64,000 bases of DNA. Source: a virus (taxonomy: Duplodnaviria; Heunggongvirae; Uroviricota; Caudoviricetes). The notes beneath the pieces are model-generated. The model saw nothing but the letters and a program-made list of their open reading frames with translations. It was not told the origin of the DNA and did not search any database. Both the position numbers and the translations under genes were made by a program. Below are positions 11,954 through 20,311 of this stretch, piece after piece (positions within the stretch are counted from its first letter, which is position 1; each line of letters starts with the position of its first letter). The DNA is taken from IMG/VR virus record IMGVR_UViG_3300031417_000415; one strand, 5' to 3'.

Positions 11954-12333
11954 AAAAGCGACGACAGTCGCCTGCATCCATCTCTGCGCTGAGCTTGGAG
12001 ATTCGGAAAGACCGTGAGAAGGGAAAACCAGATCAGGGTCGATCCTCGTCGAAGCAACGCGATGGAGGTGGTCATGAAAGATCGACTTCGTGCGCTGGCT
12101 GCGGCGGCCCAGACGGGTCTCTGGACAACAGAGCTCCGTCAGGGCCCTCCGTAGCTGCGGGCACTGTATCCACAAGGCAGGCGCATGCATGCACCTGCTG
12201 GCTTAACGGGTTCGTGCCCATAGGGCGCGGTACCGCTTCACAGACCGGGCGGGGGAGAGATCCCACGCCCGGTCGACCCCTTTAATCTATGGCTCCGGCC
12301 CGGAAAACCCGGCCGCTGCGACGGAGACCCAAC

Positions 12334-12999: not shown

Positions 13000-13180
13000 C
13001 ATCCTCCCCCAGCTGAAGCCTGGGGGATTCCTATAGCTAGCCGCTAAGGGCGTCCAACGGTCATGCGGCGAGCTTGCACTCGCCGCGTATTCCCATTGAA
13101 CCTTCCTGCTTCCTTCGGAGCCATTCGGCCCCGTTCTTCGCCGGTTGCACATCGTCCTTACGAACGATGCGTCCTACATC
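12990..13180 (-). ncRNA. candidate TnpB omega-RNA (overlaps tnpB 3' end and right-end hairpin)
   Basis: inference from IS200/IS605 architecture; right-end hairpin CCCCCAGCTGAAGCCTGGGGG lies just past the tnpB stop. Confidence 0.25.
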
Positions 13181-14390
13181 GACTCCACAGGCCTTCCGCC
13201 GTTCGGCGAGGATCGCAAGTCCTGCGACCCTTATGTTGATGGCGGCGTTGACGTCCCGGTCGTGGGCCACGCCGCACGACGGACACGTCCAGGCACGAAC
13301 GTCGAGAGCCATCTCCGCCATCCGATGCCCGCAGCCGGAGCATTTCTTGCTCGAAGGCTCCCACTGCGAGATCCTGACGATCTCGCGCCCATACCACGCC
13401 GCCTTGTACTCGAGCTGCCGCACGAACTCGCCCCAGGCCGCATCGGAGATGGACAAAGCCAGCTTCCGGTTCCTGACCATGGCACTCGCCCGTAGCGTCT
13501 CAATGCAGATCACCTGGTTCTCGGCGATCAGCTTCGACGACAGCTTGTGGAGGAAATCCAGCCGAACCCTGCGCACGCGCGCGTGGACACGCGCGACCTT
13601 CCTCCTGCTCTTCTCCCTGTTCCTGCCGCCCTTGGCCTTGCGGGCGTGATCACGTTGCGCTCTCGCCAGACGATCGAGCGACTTCCTCAGCGCTCTAGGT
13701 GCATCGATGCGACTGCCCCGATCGTCCATGACGTAGTTGGTGAGGCCAAGATCGACGCCGATGGCGTCACGGCCGCCTGCGGCGGCCGAGGTCTCGACCT
13801 CGACCTTCAGCGACACCCACCAGGTGCCGTCCGGCTCGAGACTGATGGTCATGGTGCTGGGGTCGCCCCAGAACACCTGCGTCCAGACGAGGTTCAGCGG
13901 CTGCTTCGACTTGGCCATCGTCAGGACCTTGCCGTCCCAGCCGAAGGCGGAGGCCGTGAACTCCGCCGACTGACGGAGACGACGCTTCATGAAGCTCGGA
14001 TAGCCGACCTTGCGGCCGGCCGGGGCCTTGCACCATCTGAAGAACTTCCTGAACGCCCCTTCGAGATGCCGCAGCTTCTGCTGCAGCGGCACGCAGCTGA
14101 CCTCGTTCAACCAGACGAACGCGGGGTCCTTCTTCCACTCGGTGAGCAGCGCGGACATGTCCGCATAGGACATGCCCTTCTTCTCTTCGCGCCAGCGGCG
14201 CGAGCGCTCCGCGATCATCCGATTCACGACCCAGCGTTCGCACCCGAAGGTGCGAACGAGCAGAGCCGCCTGCTCGGCAGTCGGGTAGTAGCGATAGCGA
14301 AGGCCACAGATCTGCTTCACGAAGATCGTGTTATCCTGTTTTCCTGAAAAGGAAAACGCATTCCTCCCCCGGCTGAAGCCTGGGGTATCC
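13000..14390 (-). mobile_element. IS200/IS605-family (IS1341-like) insertion sequence carrying only tnpB
   Basis: near-identical 27 bp subterminal hairpin-forming direct repeats TCCTCCCCCRGCTGAAGCCTGGGGKAT at 13002-13028 and 14362-14388 flank a TnpB gene; no TnpA. Confidence 0.6.
13061..14320 (-). CDS. tnpB: TnpB (OrfB_IS605) RNA-guided RuvC nuclease with zinc finger
   Basis: N-terminus MKQICGLRYRYYPTAEQAALLVRTFGCERWVVN, RuvC motifs, CSGCGHR...CPSCG zinc finger and NAAINI RuvC-III motif. Confidence 0.8.
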   Translation of the reverse strand: MKQICGLRYRYYPTAEQAALLVRTFGCERWVVNRMIAERSRRWREEKKGMSYADMSALLTEWKKDPAFVWLNEVSCVPLQQKLRHLEGAFRKFFRWCKAPAGRKVGYPSFMKRRLRQSAEFTASAFGWDGKVLTMAKSKQPLNLVWTQVFWGDPSTMTISLEPDGTWWVSLKVEVETSAAAGGRDAIGVDLGLTNYVMDDRGSRIDAPRALRKSLDRLARAQRDHARKAKGGRNREKSRRKVARVHARVRRVRLDFLHKLSSKLIAENQVICIETLRASAMVRNRKLALSISDAAWGEFVRQLEYKAAWYGREIVRISQWEPSSKKCSGCGHRMAEMALDVRAWTCPSCGVAHDRDVNAAINIRVAGLAILAERRKACGVDVGRIVRKDDVQPAKNGAEWLRRKQEGSMGIRGECKLAA

Positions 14391-16171: not shown

Positions 16172-17290
16172 CTACCGGCCGACCATGGCCGCAACGGCGA
16201 ACGAGCGGGTCGCAGCCTGATGGGCGACGACGCGGTCGGCGTCCTGCATGGAAGCAGACTGCCTGACGCGGGGCGGAAGAGCAATAGCGCCTATCGTCGC
16301 CGTCCTCTGCGACGGACGCGATCCCGGCATTGCGTCGCGTACCATCTGCGCCGTGAGGGCCGCCTCCACCCAGACCTTCCGGTCCTCGACCCTGTCCCGA
16401 TCCGGAATCGGCGCCGTGTCGCTCCCGGGCACGTCGCGGAAGCGCAGGCGGAGCGAGGCCTCCGACATCATGCCAATGCGGGCAGCCTCGACGGCCACCG
16501 CCGCGTGCGCCTCGCGGCTGCGGTCGACGAGCAAGGGAGCGGGCTCCCAGGTCGTCTCTACCGGCCCACGGCGATGCGAGGCCGCGCGGACGACGGCCGA
16601 CGGCGAGAGCAGGCCCTGCCGGGCGGCGGCATGCTCGGCGCGCAGAGCGTCCTCCATCCACCTGCGCCGCTCCTCGCCGCGGTCCGGCATGGGCACGAAC
16701 GACGCGATGGGCATGTCGCGGAAGCGGTCCTGGATCACGCCCGTGCTCTGACGCTCCAGCATCTCGGATTCCGCCGCCACGCGCTCGTCGAGCCGGCGGC
16801 CGTCCTTCATGAAGTCCACGACGCGGCCCGTCACGTCGGCCCTGAGGGCGAAGGTGCGCTCGGGAAAGTTCGACGGGACGGTCTCGTCGGAGGCGAGCCG
16901 GCTGACGACCTGGCGGTCGATCGCGTCCAGGACCTGCGGACCGGCCTCGCCCTTGGGCGTCATGTAGTCGCCGTCACGCGACAGCGCCTCGAACATCTTG
17001 CGGTCGGTCCAGCCGTCGCGGCCGGGGCCCGGCAGCGGCACGAGGGCCTCGCTCTCGAAGCCGAAGGGCTGCCCCATGCTGCGCACCGCCTCGGCAGGCG
17101 TCATGTCCGCCGTGTGCCGCCTGAGTCTCATCATGATGGCGACCAGGCTGGCCTGATGCGGATCGAGACCGGCGGGCGCGGTCCACTCGGCATCGCTCTG
17201 GAGACGGGTCTCCGCGACCGGCTGCTCGGGCATCGCGGCCTGCTCCCTGGCGCCGGTGAGCCGTTCCTTCAGCCTTCCCACAAAACCCAT
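16172..17290 (-). CDS. hypothetical protein (372 aa), minus strand
   Basis: protein-like composition (E, D, K, M, F) against an R/G-rich spurious sense-strand ORF; divergent from the 17372 gene. Confidence 0.5.
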   Translation of the reverse strand: MGFVGRLKERLTGAREQAAMPEQPVAETRLQSDAEWTAPAGLDPHQASLVAIMMRLRRHTADMTPAEAVRSMGQPFGFESEALVPLPGPGRDGWTDRKMFEALSRDGDYMTPKGEAGPQVLDAIDRQVVSRLASDETVPSNFPERTFALRADVTGRVVDFMKDGRRLDERVAAESEMLERQSTGVIQDRFRDMPIASFVPMPDRGEERRRWMEDALRAEHAAARQGLLSPSAVVRAASHRRGPVETTWEPAPLLVDRSREAHAAVAVEAARIGMMSEASLRLRFRDVPGSDTAPIPDRDRVEDRKVWVEAALTAQMVRDAMPGSRPSQRTATIGAIALPPRVRQSASMQDADRVVAHQAATRSFAVAAMVGR

Positions 17291-17895: not shown

Positions 17896-18162
17896 GTGGT
17901 GCTCGATCCGAGAACGTTCCTGGGCCAGTGCGTGGCCGGCACCCAGGGGCCCGACGACGTCGACGACTGGATCGACCGGTGGCACGACGGCGACTCGAAG
18001 GTCGAACTGCACGAGTATCTCGGCATGACATGGGAGGAGTACGCCAACTTCGGGCTCGCCCACGACGCGCTCCCCCACATCGTCGAGATCAGACGCCTGG
18101 TGGAGAAGGGACGCGCCGACATGCTGCATGGCCTCGCGAAGATCACCGGACGGGCGAACTAG
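17896..18162 (+). CDS. hypothetical protein (GTG start)
   Basis: AGGAGG RBS 5 nt upstream of GTG. Confidence 0.35.
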   Translation: MVLDPRTFLGQCVAGTQGPDDVDDWIDRWHDGDSKVELHEYLGMTWEEYANFGLAHDALPHIVEIRRLVEKGRADMLHGLAKITGRAN

Positions 18163-18193
18163 GCGCGAACGGACAGAGAGAAGGAAAACCAGG

Positions 18194-19852
18194 CTATTCG
18201 GATTTAGGCGTTGAAACACCTTTTGTTCTCAAACCAGACCGGTTAGTCCGCAACCATGCAGACGATCTCCGTGAGATGGACCACCGACAGTCAAGTCCGC
18301 GACACCGTCGCCGATTGGCTACGCATCGGTGCGGCCATGGTGCGTACCGGATATGCCGGCGGAGCGGACAGATCCGCCGGCGAAATCGAAGAGGTCATCA
18401 AGAAACGCTTCCCGGACCAGCCACTGGGAAGCTGGGCCGCGCACTGCGCGGCCTACGAGGCCAAGTCACTGAGGGCACGCGTGCCCAATGGGAGCATGGT
18501 GTTCGGCGGACGAGCCGAGCTGCTCCGCCGTCAGAAGGGGCTAATCTCCAGCAATATCTGGAAGGCGCGCCGCCACGGCCGCGCGCTGCCGATCATCGGC
18601 GACCGCACCCGATGGGGCAACCGACACTTCCGACTGTCGACCGACGCACGCAAATGCGTCATAACGTTCCTCAAGCACGAGGTGACTCTGGATCTGGTCG
18701 AAATGGCCGGCAAGCACGGCGCGCTGCTGCGCGCCATCGCCCTGCTCGCCGACGCCTGCCAGATCAGCGTACAGTTCTCGCTGACGCCGACGCACCTGAA
18801 CGTAACCTTCGACGAGATGGACCTGCGCCGGCTGCCGCCGGGCATGTCGCTCGAGGATGTGAAGATCCGCGAGCAGGGCGCGTCCCGCCGCGGGCGAAAA
18901 CGCAAGGACGCCTCGACGCACTATGCTGCGCACCGCATAAAGCACACCCCAGACCGGCCGGTGCACCCTGAGTGGCGTGATGCAGTACCTACCGTGGCTA
19001 CCCGCGCCATCGGCCTGGATCTAAACCCGGAATGGATCGGCATCTCCGTCATCCAGATCGACGGCGATCAACAGGATGCGGACCATGTCCGCATCCTCGA
19101 CCATGTCCTGCACCGCATCGCCGTCCCGTTCGCCGCCGAGGCCGCGAACATGACCCGTACCATGGCCAACGTGGCCGCTCAGATCATCAGTCTGGCACGC
19201 GCCTGGAACTGTGGCCTCGTCGTCCACGAGAACGGTCTCGGCAAGCTCGCCTGGTCCAAGAAATCCCGTTCCGGCCAGCAGCTGCAGACCGTGAACTACT
19301 GGTCCCGCAACGCGCTGATCGGCGGGCTGACCCGCCGCTGCAAGCTGGCGGACATAAGGTTTCTGCCAATCTGGGGTGGCTATTCCACCACGATCGGCAA
19401 CATGCTCTTCGAACTGCCTGACGCGTGCGCATCAGCAGCGGAGATCGCACGACGGGGCTTCGCCTCGACGTGCGGCATCAAGGACCGGTTTCCGGTTGTC
19501 CCAGTGCAGGTGGCTTCTCGCCGATGGAAGGATGAGAAGCTACCCACTGCCATGGTGAAGGCCCTGGCGAGCGCGGACAGCTGGCAGGCGGTCCACCGGG
19601 CAATCAAACCGGCGCAGGCCGGGACGCGCAAGCGTCCCGGCATTGGCTACCGTCGGCTGCATCCATTGTCCTCGAACATGGTACCCGGGCGCCTGCTCCG
19701 ACTTGGAGATACGGGCTACGCAGTGAACCGGCTTGGGAATGGAAAAGGAGTGAGCTGTTCGGCCCGCCCGGTTCGACTATCCAGAACGGTTCGAGATAGT
19801 TCGGACCGGGTGACGGTCAGCGTGAGCTGATTCCACACTCAAATCCGAATAG
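18194..19852 (+). mobile_element. 1.66 kb TIR-bounded element encoding a TnpB-like protein, with 10 bp target-site duplication GAAAACCAGG
   Basis: TIR-L CTATTCGGATTTAGG at 18194-18208 and TIR-R CTCAAATCCGAATAG at 19838-19852; direct repeat GAAAACCAGG at 18184-18193 and 19855-19864. Confidence 0.5.
18256..19830 (+). CDS. TnpB-like RuvC-fold nuclease (524 aa) with no recognisable zinc finger
   Basis: TnpB-like N-terminus; RuvC-I AIGLDLNPEWIGISV, RuvC-II LVVHENGLGKLAWS, RuvC-III DACASAAEIARRG; no CxxC..CxxC between II and III. Confidence 0.6.
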   Translation: MQTISVRWTTDSQVRDTVADWLRIGAAMVRTGYAGGADRSAGEIEEVIKKRFPDQPLGSWAAHCAAYEAKSLRARVPNGSMVFGGRAELLRRQKGLISSNIWKARRHGRALPIIGDRTRWGNRHFRLSTDARKCVITFLKHEVTLDLVEMAGKHGALLRAIALLADACQISVQFSLTPTHLNVTFDEMDLRRLPPGMSLEDVKIREQGASRRGRKRKDASTHYAAHRIKHTPDRPVHPEWRDAVPTVATRAIGLDLNPEWIGISVIQIDGDQQDADHVRILDHVLHRIAVPFAAEAANMTRTMANVAAQIISLARAWNCGLVVHENGLGKLAWSKKSRSGQQLQTVNYWSRNALIGGLTRRCKLADIRFLPIWGGYSTTIGNMLFELPDACASAAEIARRGFASTCGIKDRFPVVPVQVASRRWKDEKLPTAMVKALASADSWQAVHRAIKPAQAGTRKRPGIGYRRLHPLSSNMVPGRLLRLGDTGYAVNRLGNGKGVSCSARPVRLSRTVRDSSDRVTVSVS

Positions 19853-19864
19853 CCGAAAACCAGG
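19730..19864 (+). ncRNA. candidate guide/scaffold RNA region at the 3' end of the TnpB-like gene
   Basis: imperfect 13 bp inverted repeat CCGGTTCGACTATC...GATAGTTCGGACCGG inside the ORF 3' end and right end. Confidence 0.2.
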
Positions 19865-20311
19865 ATGGCACGCAACGTCACGATCGTCGCGGGAACGCTG
19901 GACGACACGACACGCGCCGCGCTCGTGGCGCTGCTCGCACGGCCGCTGCCGGCGATCGTGCGCCGGGCGCTGTCGGCGGCGCGCGACCTCGACGACGGAC
20001 TGACCAGCGCACCCCAGCACTCGCTCTACGGCGTGCTGGAGGCGTTGTACGCCTGGCAGACCAGGGCGATGCCGCAGCTGCAGGACGAGGTGCGCGCGAT
20101 CCACGCGTCGGCGGTCCGCCTGGAGGGGCCGCAGACCGTGCAGACCTGTGCGATCCGCGAGATGCTGGGTCTGGCATCGTACATCGCCGACGGCGGCAGG
20201 GCCGAACGGATCGGCGAGCGCATCGGCACGCTGTGCGGGTCGCTGTCCGAGCTCCGCCAGGGCCCGCTGCTGACGTCGGAGGAGCCGCGCGTCCTGCTCG
20301 GAGCCGCCTGA
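19865..20311 (+). CDS. hypothetical protein
   Basis: start directly after the duplicated GAAAACCAGG. Confidence 0.45.
   Translation: MARNVTIVAGTLDDTTRAALVALLARPLPAIVRRALSAARDLDDGLTSAPQHSLYGVLEALYAWQTRAMPQLQDEVRAIHASAVRLEGPQTVQTCAIREMLGLASYIADGGRAERIGERIGTLCGSLSELRQGPLLTSEEPRVLLGAA

Follow-up and report, generated by a model that had tools for sequence, protein, structure and literature searches.

A TnpB-like RuvC protein without a zinc finger, and a conserved RNA structure at the 3' end of its gene, on a mobile element with ISL3-type ends

Canonical TnpB elements of the insertion sequence (IS) types IS200/IS605 and IS607 have neither terminal inverted repeats (TIRs) nor target-site duplications (TSDs). 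A locus in the IMG/VR virus record IMGVR_UViG_3300031417_000415, of which a stretch of 64,000 nucleotides was analysed (hereafter the window), raises the question of how a TnpB-like gene comes to lie on an element that has both, what moves this element and what its protein does. An earlier note on the same DNA, which agrees with the literature on the lack of TIRs and TSDs in the canonical elements, had described here a TnpB-like RuvC protein without a zinc finger on a transposon with the signature of cut-and-paste DDE-type insertion. Our analysis favours, with a probability of about 0.65, a non-autonomous carrier with ISL3-type ends that bears a TnpB-like nuclease together with an RNA module and is moved in trans.

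The element spans 1,663 bp and contains a single open reading frame (ORF). Its limits and immediate surroundings are as follows.

18184..18191, no strand: left TSD copy, GAAAACCA; present as a single copy in the empty sites of contigs L034 and L036-L040, and identical to the 8-mer at 19855-19862
18192..18221, plus strand: left TIR (IRL), GGCTATTCGGATTTAGGCGTTGAAACACCT, of ISL3 type; one arm of the inverted pair, matching an end of L132 at 26 of 30 positions
18192..19854, plus strand: whole 1,663-bp non-autonomous element, as given by the lengths of filled and empty sites; its boundaries recur in 19 other insertions
19825..19854, minus strand: right TIR (IRR), GGCTATTCGGATTTGAGTGTGGAATCAGCT when read on the minus strand; other arm of the inverted pair, its first 23 nt being those of the end of the miniature inverted-repeat transposable element (MITE) L125
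19855..19862, no strand: right TSD copy, GAAAACCA; matches the left copy and agrees with the empty sites
19865..20311, plus strand: downstream 148-aa host gene, outside the element; the insertion parted its Shine-Dalgarno sequence from its ATG

The two inverted-repeat arms, obtained by a repeat search of the window, are 30 nt long and 80% complementary, and their outer 14 nt (GGCTATTCGGATTT) match perfectly. A 17-mer of the TIR occurs at only two sites within the 64 kb, which are the two element ends, against 0.03 sites expected by chance. Outside the arms, the sequence GAAAACCAGG is directly repeated at 18184-18193 and 19855-19864. The last GG of its left copy are the first two bases of the left TIR, and the CC between GAATAG and the right-hand repeat are the last two bases of the right TIR. 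Since GG and CC thus belong to the TIR termini, the duplicated target is 8 bp long (GAAAACCA) and not 10 bp, which was decided by the empty sites. Inverted ends and a duplication had both been correctly recognized in the earlier note; the sizes given there, a 15-bp TIR and a 10-bp TSD, have to be replaced.

To follow the site itself, the proteins encoded by both flanking genes (88 aa and 148 aa) were looked up exactly in public assemblies. The filled configuration was found on contigs of 0.55 to >1 Mb. Six independent contigs (L034 and L036-L040) carry the empty site, in which the 148-aa gene follows the 88-aa gene after 31 nt and the spacer is uninterrupted (...GAGAGAAGGAAAACCAGGATGGC...), with one copy of GAAAACCA. 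The aligned empty site reads ...GAGAGAAGGAAAACCAGGATGGCACGC..., its flanks being identical on both sides to those of the filled site, and the latter is longer by 1,671 bp, i.e., by the 1,663-bp element and the 8-bp duplication. Six uninterrupted sibling sites thus prove that the insertion took place and that it is recent; it is polymorphic in the population. As had been proposed before, the element parts the Shine-Dalgarno-like GAGAAGG from the ATG of the 148-aa gene. That the unit is a real mobile element is therefore virtually certain.

The protein belongs to a large bacterial family found in Rhizobiales, Acetobacteraceae and large uncultured soil replicons. We collected 156 close homologues of 460-560 aa, none of which has a Pfam domain and three of which are labelled 'IS605 OrfB family transposase' by JGI; in total the family comprises at least 1,267 clusters at 50% identity (E <= 1e-3), mostly of 410-470 aa. 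Among named genomes, the hosts are Rhizobiales and Acetobacteraceae, at times with two copies per genome and frequently with fragments. Besides Acetobacter persici TMW2.1084, carriers are Mesorhizobium sp. SP-1A, Bradyrhizobium tropiciagri and Methylobacterium fujisawaense (GCA_053346195.1), as well as the >1-Mb contigs Ga0308163_10000002 and k141_1011129. Loci whose proteins are 24-41% identical to that of the window always consist of a 1.4-1.8-kb single-ORF unit with GG...CC termini, and the usual TIR of the family is GGCTAT[T/C]CGGATTT...TGTGGAA. Nineteen further unique insertions have an exact 8-bp TSD abutting these termini, the element ends having been set by a search that demanded both a TSD and a TIR. 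One 1.27-Mb contig has three diverged copies of 90-92% identity, whose similarity stops exactly at the TIRs; their TSDs are GAAATGCG (exact), GGAAACCA/GAAAACCA and GAAAAGAG/GAAAAGAC. The ORF stops 2-25 nt before the element end, and in 12 of 21 elements the stop codon is the TAG within the terminal ...GAATAGCC. The search for other copies and for empty sites thus yielded 19 insertions and six empty alleles, which bears out the reading of the locus as a TIR/TSD transposon of the DDE-type insertion signature.

Further copies were observed elsewhere. The complete 526-kb megaplasmid pAC1084_1 of Acetobacter persici TMW2.1084 (L041; NZ_CP014688.1) gives eight tblastn matches to the TnpB-like protein, and the copy examined has diverged ends (GACTCTCCTGCAAACGGGGTTGATG / GGCTATCCTGCATAACGGGTTGATG) and the TSD AAAATATC. 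Contigs related to the window carry at least four copies, which fall into two subfamilies of the TnpB-like element.

The only ORF of the element encodes a protein of 524 aa, as the earlier note had it, and its catalytic residues are placed as listed here.

18256..19830, plus strand: only ORF; 524-aa RuvC protein of predicted TnpB/Cas12f fold, zinc-finger-less, with a C-terminal extension of ~120 aa
19018..19020, plus strand: predicted RuvC-I catalytic Asp D255 (GLDLNP), at the end of β1 (model strand 250-256); invariant in 28 homologues
19228..19230, plus strand: predicted RuvC-II catalytic Glu E325 (VVHENGLGKL), at the end of β4 (model strand 321-326); invariant in 28 homologues
19420..19422, plus strand: predicted RuvC-III catalytic Asp D389 (in PDACASAAEIARRG), at the start of a helix (389-405) that follows strand 368-373; invariant in 28 homologues

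The three motifs GLDLN, VVHENGLG and DACASAAEIARRG are all present. In an alignment of 28 homologues, D255 (G-x-DLNP), E325 (hE-x-GLGKL) and D389 (PDACA-x-AAEIARRG) are invariant, and so are N347, W349, R351 and the YSTTIGN motif. The 524-aa protein contains no CxxC, and no cysteine pair is conserved across the 28 sequences. An AlphaFold2 model computed from the family alignment (pLDDT 82.8, pTM 0.79) shows a core of the order β1-β2-β3-α-β4-α-β5, in which D255 ends β1, E325 ends β4 and D389 opens the next long helix, so that the acidic residues follow the D-E-D arrangement of RuvC domains on β1, β4 and the C-terminal helix. Only 15 residues connect β5 to the RuvC-III helix in the model, and there is thus no space for a zinc-finger or target nucleic acid-binding (TNB) insert as found in the TnpB/Cas12 superfamily. 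The protein has instead a conserved C-terminal extension of ~120 residues (IGYRRPHP ... GYAVxRLG).

A Foldseek search of the Protein Data Bank (PDB) with this model placed Cas12k and Cas12f at the top (E ~5e-8 over ~500 aligned columns), Cas12k being the best match, followed by RuvC resolvases, which align to the model with template modelling (TM) scores of 0.6-0.67. The structural alignments with Cas12k, Cas12f and TnpB span 260-340 residues and thus reach beyond the RuvC domain into a part resembling the wedge (WED) and recognition (REC) domains; the predicted overall architecture is that of the WED-REC-RuvC proteins of the TnpB/Cas12 (type V) superfamily. Neither a D-D-E order of the acidic residues nor transposases or integrases as closest structures were seen. 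At the level of sequence, the picture is different. The 524-aa ORF matched nothing in Pfam, NCBIfam or PHROGs, the Pfam models OrfB_IS605, HTH_OrfB_IS605 and Cas12f1-like_TNB included; phmmer with the single sequence and a search with the family profile returned no PDB chain, whether of TnpB, Cas12 or another protein; and hhalign found no similarity between the family profile and a canonical TnpB encoded in the same window. Three of ten distant relatives gave sub-threshold matches to Cas12f1-like_TNB, confined to positions 3-29 of 60, ahead of the zinc finger. Accordingly, of the check by profiles and structure prediction that had been suggested, the model upholds the RuvC fold and the loss of the zinc finger, whereas a profile link to TnpB or Cas12 was not obtained. 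Judging from the predicted structure, we consider it very likely that the protein has a TnpB/Cas12 fold with an intact RuvC triad and without a zinc finger.

What, then, moves the element? Its ends are ISL3-type. The inverted repeats (IRs) of ISPpu12, an ISL3 member, read from pWW0 are GGGTATACGGATTTAATGGTTGATGG... and GGGTAAGCGGATTAAATGGTTGATC, and IRL of the window is identical to an ISPpu12 IR at 19 of 30 positions. Much closer is the end in L132 that lies 3' of an ISL3 transposase gene (26/30 to IRL), and the first 23 nt of IRR are identical to the end of the ISL3-type MITE L125. Scanning IMG/VR contigs with the TIR pattern of the family yielded first 18 and later 50 loci; an ISPpu12-like transposase is encoded beside the TIR in 17 of them, and none of the loci contains the TnpB-like gene. 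The three transposases compared with Pfam carry DDE_Tnp_ISL3, Zn_ribbon_ISL3 and HTH_Tnp_ISL3 (1e-51 to 1e-61), and complete ISL3 copies have 8-bp TSDs (e.g., L132 525-2330 and L131 7947-9690). The element of the window thus resembles ISL3 members such as ISPpu12 and the MITEs derived from them in its terminal type (GG[C/G]TAT.CGGATTT...GT[G/T]GA), its 8-bp TSD, the stop codon in the terminal TAG and the occurrence of non-autonomous derivatives. In contrast to them, it has no DDE_Tnp_ISL3 transposase with zinc ribbon and helix-turn-helix (HTH), its ORF of Cas12/TnpB fold is oriented oppositely with respect to the end types, and it carries an additional structured RNA of ~200 nt. As the transposase is missing, it can at most be a non-autonomous ISL3-type element. 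The transposase ORF of L132 (527-1897, minus strand) was seen to stop at the TAG inside the terminal GAATAGCC of its IR, like most TnpB-like ORFs; ISL3 transposase genes and TnpB-like genes exploit opposite ends of a like vehicle in the same manner.

Elements without a transposase are common among those with such ends. We found 13 MITE-like derivatives, 326-1,061 bp long, that have ISL3-type ends and are flanked by exact 8-bp TSDs; viral contigs with such elements are L125, L126, L130, L136, L140, L141 and L143, and further ones are L144, L146, L154, L157, L163, L172 and L174. Likewise, a 1,264-bp element (L176 1748-3011) has as its only gene an MT-A70 DNA methyltransferase, is flanked by the 8-bp TSD TGGCAGAT and has the TIR GGTAGTGTATCAGTT..., which is also that of the distant TnpB-like element L109. 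MITEs and a methylase-only element with such ends and 8-bp TSDs indicate that ends of these types are mobilised in trans. With the ends being ISL3-type, the simplest source of the DDE signature of the insertion is an ISL3 transposase that acts in trans, not the TnpB-like protein, and we regard mobilisation by such an enzyme as probable.

The transposase itself was sought in several places. Neither the window nor the flanks (3-4 kb) of ~100 family loci yielded an ISL3 transposase by tblastn, and the comparison of the family profile with the ISPpu12 transposase by hhalign gave nothing (probability 0.1%). There was no ISL3 transposase in the first 50 kb of the 526-kb Acetobacter persici megaplasmid, the Acetobacter-type and L061-type TIR variants were not found in the scanned viral contigs, and none of the top 120 ISL3 transposase homologues came from a contig that matched, by length, the giant contigs that bear the TnpB-like element. 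An ISL3 transposase accompanied by such an end (GGCTATTCGGATTTGGGTGTTGAA) occurs in Methylobacterium fujisawaense, and one assembly of this species contains two TnpB-like elements, of which one is flanked by a perfect TSD. In L180, an outward-facing right-end-like TIR (~1455-1475; ..CTCCACACTTTAATCCGAGC) lies just upstream of a Methylobacterium-type ISL3 transposase gene, for which no proper left end was found in L180; this arrangement suggests that ISL3-type elements are nested in or abut one another here.

The 3' end of the gene is more than coding sequence. The earlier note had pointed to an imperfect 13-bp inverted repeat there as a possible guide-RNA scaffold. Three structured modules replace it.

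19653..19727, plus strand: RNA module 1, helix P1 (CUGC/GCAG) around hairpins H1 and H2 (covariance model R1); between IGYRR(L/P)HP and GYAV
19724..19795, plus strand: RNA module 2, long hairpin H3 of ~70 nt (covariance model R2); helix limits in the window are approximate
19798..19853, plus strand: RNA module 3, terminal hairpin H4, whose 3' arm is the right TIR (covariance model R2)

The terminal 240 nt of 18 diverse elements were aligned. In the segment from IGYRRPHP to GYAV, both the sequence and the length of the protein are hypervariable, yet the nucleotides keep H1 and H2 closed by a CCGC/GCGG helix. Model R1 gathered 76 instances, all on the ORF strand, in which 92.3% of the cells are paired (31-43% when the partners are slid) and 158 cells show double changes (9-37 in the controls). 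The covariation score is 0.45 compared with at most 0.085 in the controls, and none of 500 shuffles reaches the observed value. For model R2, which covers H3 and H4, 48 distinct full-length sense-strand instances were aligned; 87% of the cells are paired (30-43% slid), with 240 double-change cells (40-62 in controls). Taken separately, H3 is 88% paired (29-43% slid) with 165 double-change cells (19-42), and H4 is 86% paired (26-43% slid). Many pairs in H3 and H4 are G.U, fitting the sense strand only, as they would be A.C mismatches on the other strand. In H4, the right TIR pairs with an internal, degenerate inverted copy of itself, and the pairing continues up to the penultimate base of the element.

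Since the R1 and R2 alignments were fitted to the models, they are biased towards the modelled structure, and MAFFT with RNAalifold on all 18 tails gave no consensus for H3 and H4, which were obtained from one subgroup and extended by covariance model. Measured against the slid controls, and in view of how many distinct pair types occur, the covariation signal is nevertheless strong. R1 has no match at the ISL3 and MITE loci and R2 only weak, TIR-anchored ones. An Rfam scan of 17900-20200 returned no matching family, apart from a chance-level naRNA4 on the minus strand only. Thus, the suspected RNA at the end of the ORF was found by the covariance scan as a covarying sense-strand structure, though as four hairpins over ~200 nt (~19653-19854 in the window) and not as a 13-bp repeat. 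By analogy, a scaffold of ~200 nt that overlies the end of the gene and extends just up to the transposon boundary has the layout of a TnpB omega-RNA, and we consider an omega-RNA-like role as a guide somewhat more likely than not.

The insertions also share a target. In the 19 TSDs, oriented by the ORF, position 1 is G in 14, position 2 is A in all 19, position 3 is A in 16 and position 4 is A in 13, and G stands just before the TSD in 11. The preferred target is thus G/GAAAnnnn (the slash marks the start of the TSD), with a one-sided bias and a fixed orientation. ISL3 copies turned to the same left end type show RAAR at that side in 5 of 8 cases, a sample (eight tabulated of nine complete copies) too small to credit the preference wholly to the transposase. 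A co-oriented ORF of at least 60 aa starts within 22 nt of 8 of the 19 insertions, compared with 21% of random positions, and an ATG follows immediately after the copy of the window and after two of the three copies on the 1.27-Mb contig. The replicon has a recurring translation-start motif, GAG[A/G]AGGAAAACC(n)ATG (window positions 12023, 18184 and 41260; right junctions of L053 and L055), and TnpB-like elements insert repeatedly into this GAG[A/G]AGGAAAACC-ATG motif, in the orientation of the gene. The promoter scan found no sigma-70-like promoter inside the element. Co-orientation, the end of the ORF 2-25 nt from the tip and the nearby host ATG together suggest that the element is expressed by host read-through and coupled in translation to the downstream gene. 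Owing to this oriented preference for the space between ribosome-binding site (RBS) and ATG, such insertions may be mistaken for genes of an operon.

The explanation that we favour joins these observations as follows. An ISL3 transposase made elsewhere in the cell would move the element through its ends, as the ISL3-type MITEs and the methylase-carrying element evidently travel. The protein would comprise WED/REC-like N-terminal domains and a RuvC domain with D-E-D, having lost the zinc-finger/TNB insert and gained the C-terminal extension. Host transcription would drive the element, and translational coupling may spare the downstream gene; the read-through transcript would carry the right TSD and the host flank as a 3' extension, which could be the guide. 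In analogy to TnpB in IS200/IS605 and IS607 and to Fanzor, protein and RNA may then form an RNA-guided nuclease that serves the spread or retention of the element.

Several observations weigh against this explanation. No sequence profile ties the protein to TnpB, homology being seen in the predicted structure and the motifs. The window RNA alone folds just modestly better than shuffles (z = -1.6), and H4-like pairing is perhaps partly inherited from the ISL3 end, as the weak R2 matches indicate. If the guide starts at the right TSD, the logo shows no clear target-adjacent motif (TAM), only G at -1 (11/19) and R at -2. No end-matched ISL3 transposase was found in the genome of this copy, of which 64 kb of a >0.5-Mb contig were scanned, and an ISL3 transposase and a TnpB-like gene occurred together in one element in none of ~150 loci, so that we infer the partnership from the identity of the ends alone. 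Lastly, the target bias seems stronger in the TnpB-like elements (16 of 19 TSDs start with GAA or AAA) than in the few ISL3 copies and MITEs (~5/8), and the cargo might contribute to target choice.

These points lend themselves to other explanations. The element may be a carrier with ISL3 ends as we propose, while its protein is no RNA-guided nuclease acting on the flanks and the hairpins are cis-regulatory or structural, serving mRNA stability, attenuation, control of read-through or of translation of the downstream gene, or as DNA structures bound by the transposase; the protein might then, for instance, cleave specific DNA structures or regulate ISL3 transposition. The missing zinc-finger/TNB domain of TnpB and Cas12f, the missing sequence-level tie to TnpB and the unclear TAM upstream of the TSD would fit, as would the use of the TIR itself by H4 with its weak counterparts at ISL3 ends, the strong structural matches of RuvC resolvases to the catalytic core, and the many insertions that shortly precede start codons, at which RNA structure could affect the host gene. 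However, the structural alignment over 260-340 residues takes in the WED/REC-like part, H1-H3 have no counterpart in ISL3 copies or MITEs, and a covarying multi-helix sense RNA of ~200 nt that reaches exactly to the transposon tip corresponds to the layout of omega-RNAs; moreover, zinc-finger-less TnpB clades are thought to be active according to PMC10691335. We therefore consider the cis-regulatory explanation unlikely. Much less still speaks for the ORF being a very divergent, ISL3-like DDE transposase and the whole an ordinary autonomous ISL3 insertion sequence. The ISL3-type ends with their TSD, the single ORF in an IS-like size, the stop codon in the terminal TAG as in the L132 transposase gene, and the RNase H-like core common to DDE and RuvC domains could be brought forward for it. 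Yet real ISL3 transposases with these ends are recognised by DDE_Tnp_ISL3, Zn_ribbon_ISL3 and HTH_Tnp_ISL3 (1e-51 to 1e-61) and this protein by none of them, hhalign gives a probability of 0.1% against the ISPpu12 transposase, the acidic residues are predicted on β1, β4 and the last helix in the RuvC order D-E-D and not D-D-E, the best structures over most of the chain are Cas12k, Cas12f and TnpB, and the ORF is inverted relative to ISL3 transposase genes with respect to end type. We rejected this candidate on account of the D-E-D order, the absent ISL3 profile match and the Cas12/TnpB structural neighbours, and deem it extremely improbable.

Finally, the TnpB-like RuvC protein, perhaps with the RNA, could itself be the transposase, binding the inverted repeats and making cuts staggered by 8 bp; the element would then represent a new D-E-D family of TIR/TSD insertion sequences, with ends that merely resemble those of ISL3 or were captured from them. 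All of ~100 family loci have a single ORF and no DDE transposase within 3-4 kb, the TIRs are kept while the proteins drop to 24-35% identity, the target preference is oriented and apparently stronger than in the sampled ISL3 copies and MITEs, and the conserved basic C-terminal domain has no assigned role. In addition, the ORF extends into the right TIR, which is common among transposase genes of insertion sequences, and a transposase of RuvC fold is known in IS110 (DEDD). Against this stand the near-identity of the ends (26/30; 23 of 23 leading bases) to those of ISL3 copies and MITEs with the same 8-bp TSD, the fresh TSDs of gene-less or methylase-only elements with like ends, which show that a trans-acting transposase exists, and a predicted fold of RNA-guided nucleases accompanied by a conserved omega-RNA-like structure. 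We know of no TnpB or Cas12 relative that catalyses strand transfer, and judge a RuvC transposase to be quite improbable. The same low standing applies to the broader idea that protein and RNA take part in transposition, be it as a RuvC transposase on ISL3-like ends or as a targeting factor, an idea which comes from the absence of a transposase beside the gene, the seemingly stronger bias and Cas12k as the top structural match. In the targeting version, RNA- or protein-guided steering could direct ISL3-type integration in fixed orientation into G/GAAA RBS-ATG spacers, which, if true, would make the system a minimal, CRISPR-free analogue of Cas12k-guided transposition.

Returning to the non-autonomous ISL3-ended carrier, its kind as such is already known, and the novelty implied in the earlier note was overstated. 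Altae-Tran et al. (PNAS 2023; PMC10691335) describe six TnpB branches tied to DDE transposases (DDE-1 to DDE-6), all with inverted terminal repeats, solo TnpBs with ends that match transposase-bearing systems and imply trans-mobilisation, and a zinc-finger-less TnpB clade, RIIIr-4. As in DDE-1 to DDE-6, a TnpB-family protein here lies in a transposon bounded by inverted repeats, and its ORF ends no more than 250 bp from the element end; in contrast to them, no copy was found beside a transposase, the Pfam models for TnpB are blind to the protein and the zinc finger is absent. RIIIr-4 likewise has no C4 zinc finger between RuvC-II and RuvC-III, but according to the same text its RuvC-III Asp is changed to His and a gene of ribbon-helix-helix (RHH)/MazE-like type is linked to it, whereas here D389 is invariant and there is no such neighbour. 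The DDE partner named in that text is IS630, and ISL2 and IS1031 are named in other literature. ISL3 as a partner of TnpB is not mentioned in the literature searched, including the main text of PMC10691335, and papers on TnpB together with ISL3 were unrelated ones on resistance plasmids only. The partnership of a TnpB-like gene with ISL3-type DDE ends thus apparently is unreported. This variant is further marked by a family invisible to Pfam, a new C-terminal domain, a well-supported RNA structure and oriented, RBS-proximal targeting.

Other relatives differ more. Solo tnpB elements of the IS1341 type (IS200/IS605) also consist of one gene with a 3' omega-RNA and depend on a transposase encoded elsewhere. 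IS200/IS605 elements have subterminal DNA hairpins in place of TIRs and TSDs, insert 3' of a TAM and use a Y1 HUH transposase; an identity of our element as IS200/IS605 (including the IS1341 type) or IS607 was ruled out by the 30-nt TIR, the 8-bp TSD and the absence of an adjacent TnpA. Fanzors are TnpB-like nucleases in transposons of cut-and-paste type with TIRs and TSDs, their omega-RNA overlaps the transposon end, and their TSD or target preference is believed to contribute to the TAM. They occur, however, in eukaryotes or viruses, are usually larger and have other motifs retained or rearranged, while the family described here is bacterial. Compared with Cas12k of the type V-K CRISPR-associated transposons and with Cas12f, the element lacks a CRISPR array and Tn7-like genes, and sequence identity is only 10-12%; Cas12k is moreover catalytically dead, whereas our family retains D-E-D.

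The neighbourhood of the element shows further variation. About 4 kb upstream, at 13061-14320 on the minus strand, the window encodes a canonical TnpB of 419 aa with HTH_OrfB_IS605, OrfB_IS605 and Cas12f1-like_TNB (PHROG 506, 1.8e-117). It is absent from the sibling contigs L034 and L036, in which the adjoining 221-aa and 74-aa genes abut, and thus represents a second polymorphic insertion. The 372-aa gene upstream of the insertion site (16172-17290, minus strand) corresponds to a 471-aa gene in the empty-site contig L034 (2276-3691) and is split into 372-aa and 105-aa genes in filled contigs, which points to a frameshift or indel polymorphism nearby. The window derives from very large soil-metagenome contigs (L001, L035 and L044; 0.55 to >1 Mb) with a GC content of 66.5%. 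Neighbouring genes almost totally lack Pfam domains, and an ART-PolyVal gene lies downstream; the replicon may be a giant extrachromosomal element or a phage-like replicon.

The family has so far gone unseen by Pfam, NCBIfam and PHROGs, and most of its copies are annotated as hypothetical proteins. The filled and empty alleles of one site, together with the cultured host Acetobacter persici TMW2.1084, offer a convenient start for experiments. If the RNA-guided explanation is true, the compact protein with its ~200-nt RNA would be a candidate for genome editing and would provide a natural zinc-finger-less enzyme with a different C-terminal domain. It would then also be a new bacterial TnpB-like nuclease adapted to a TSD-making transposon, as the Fanzors are in eukaryotes.

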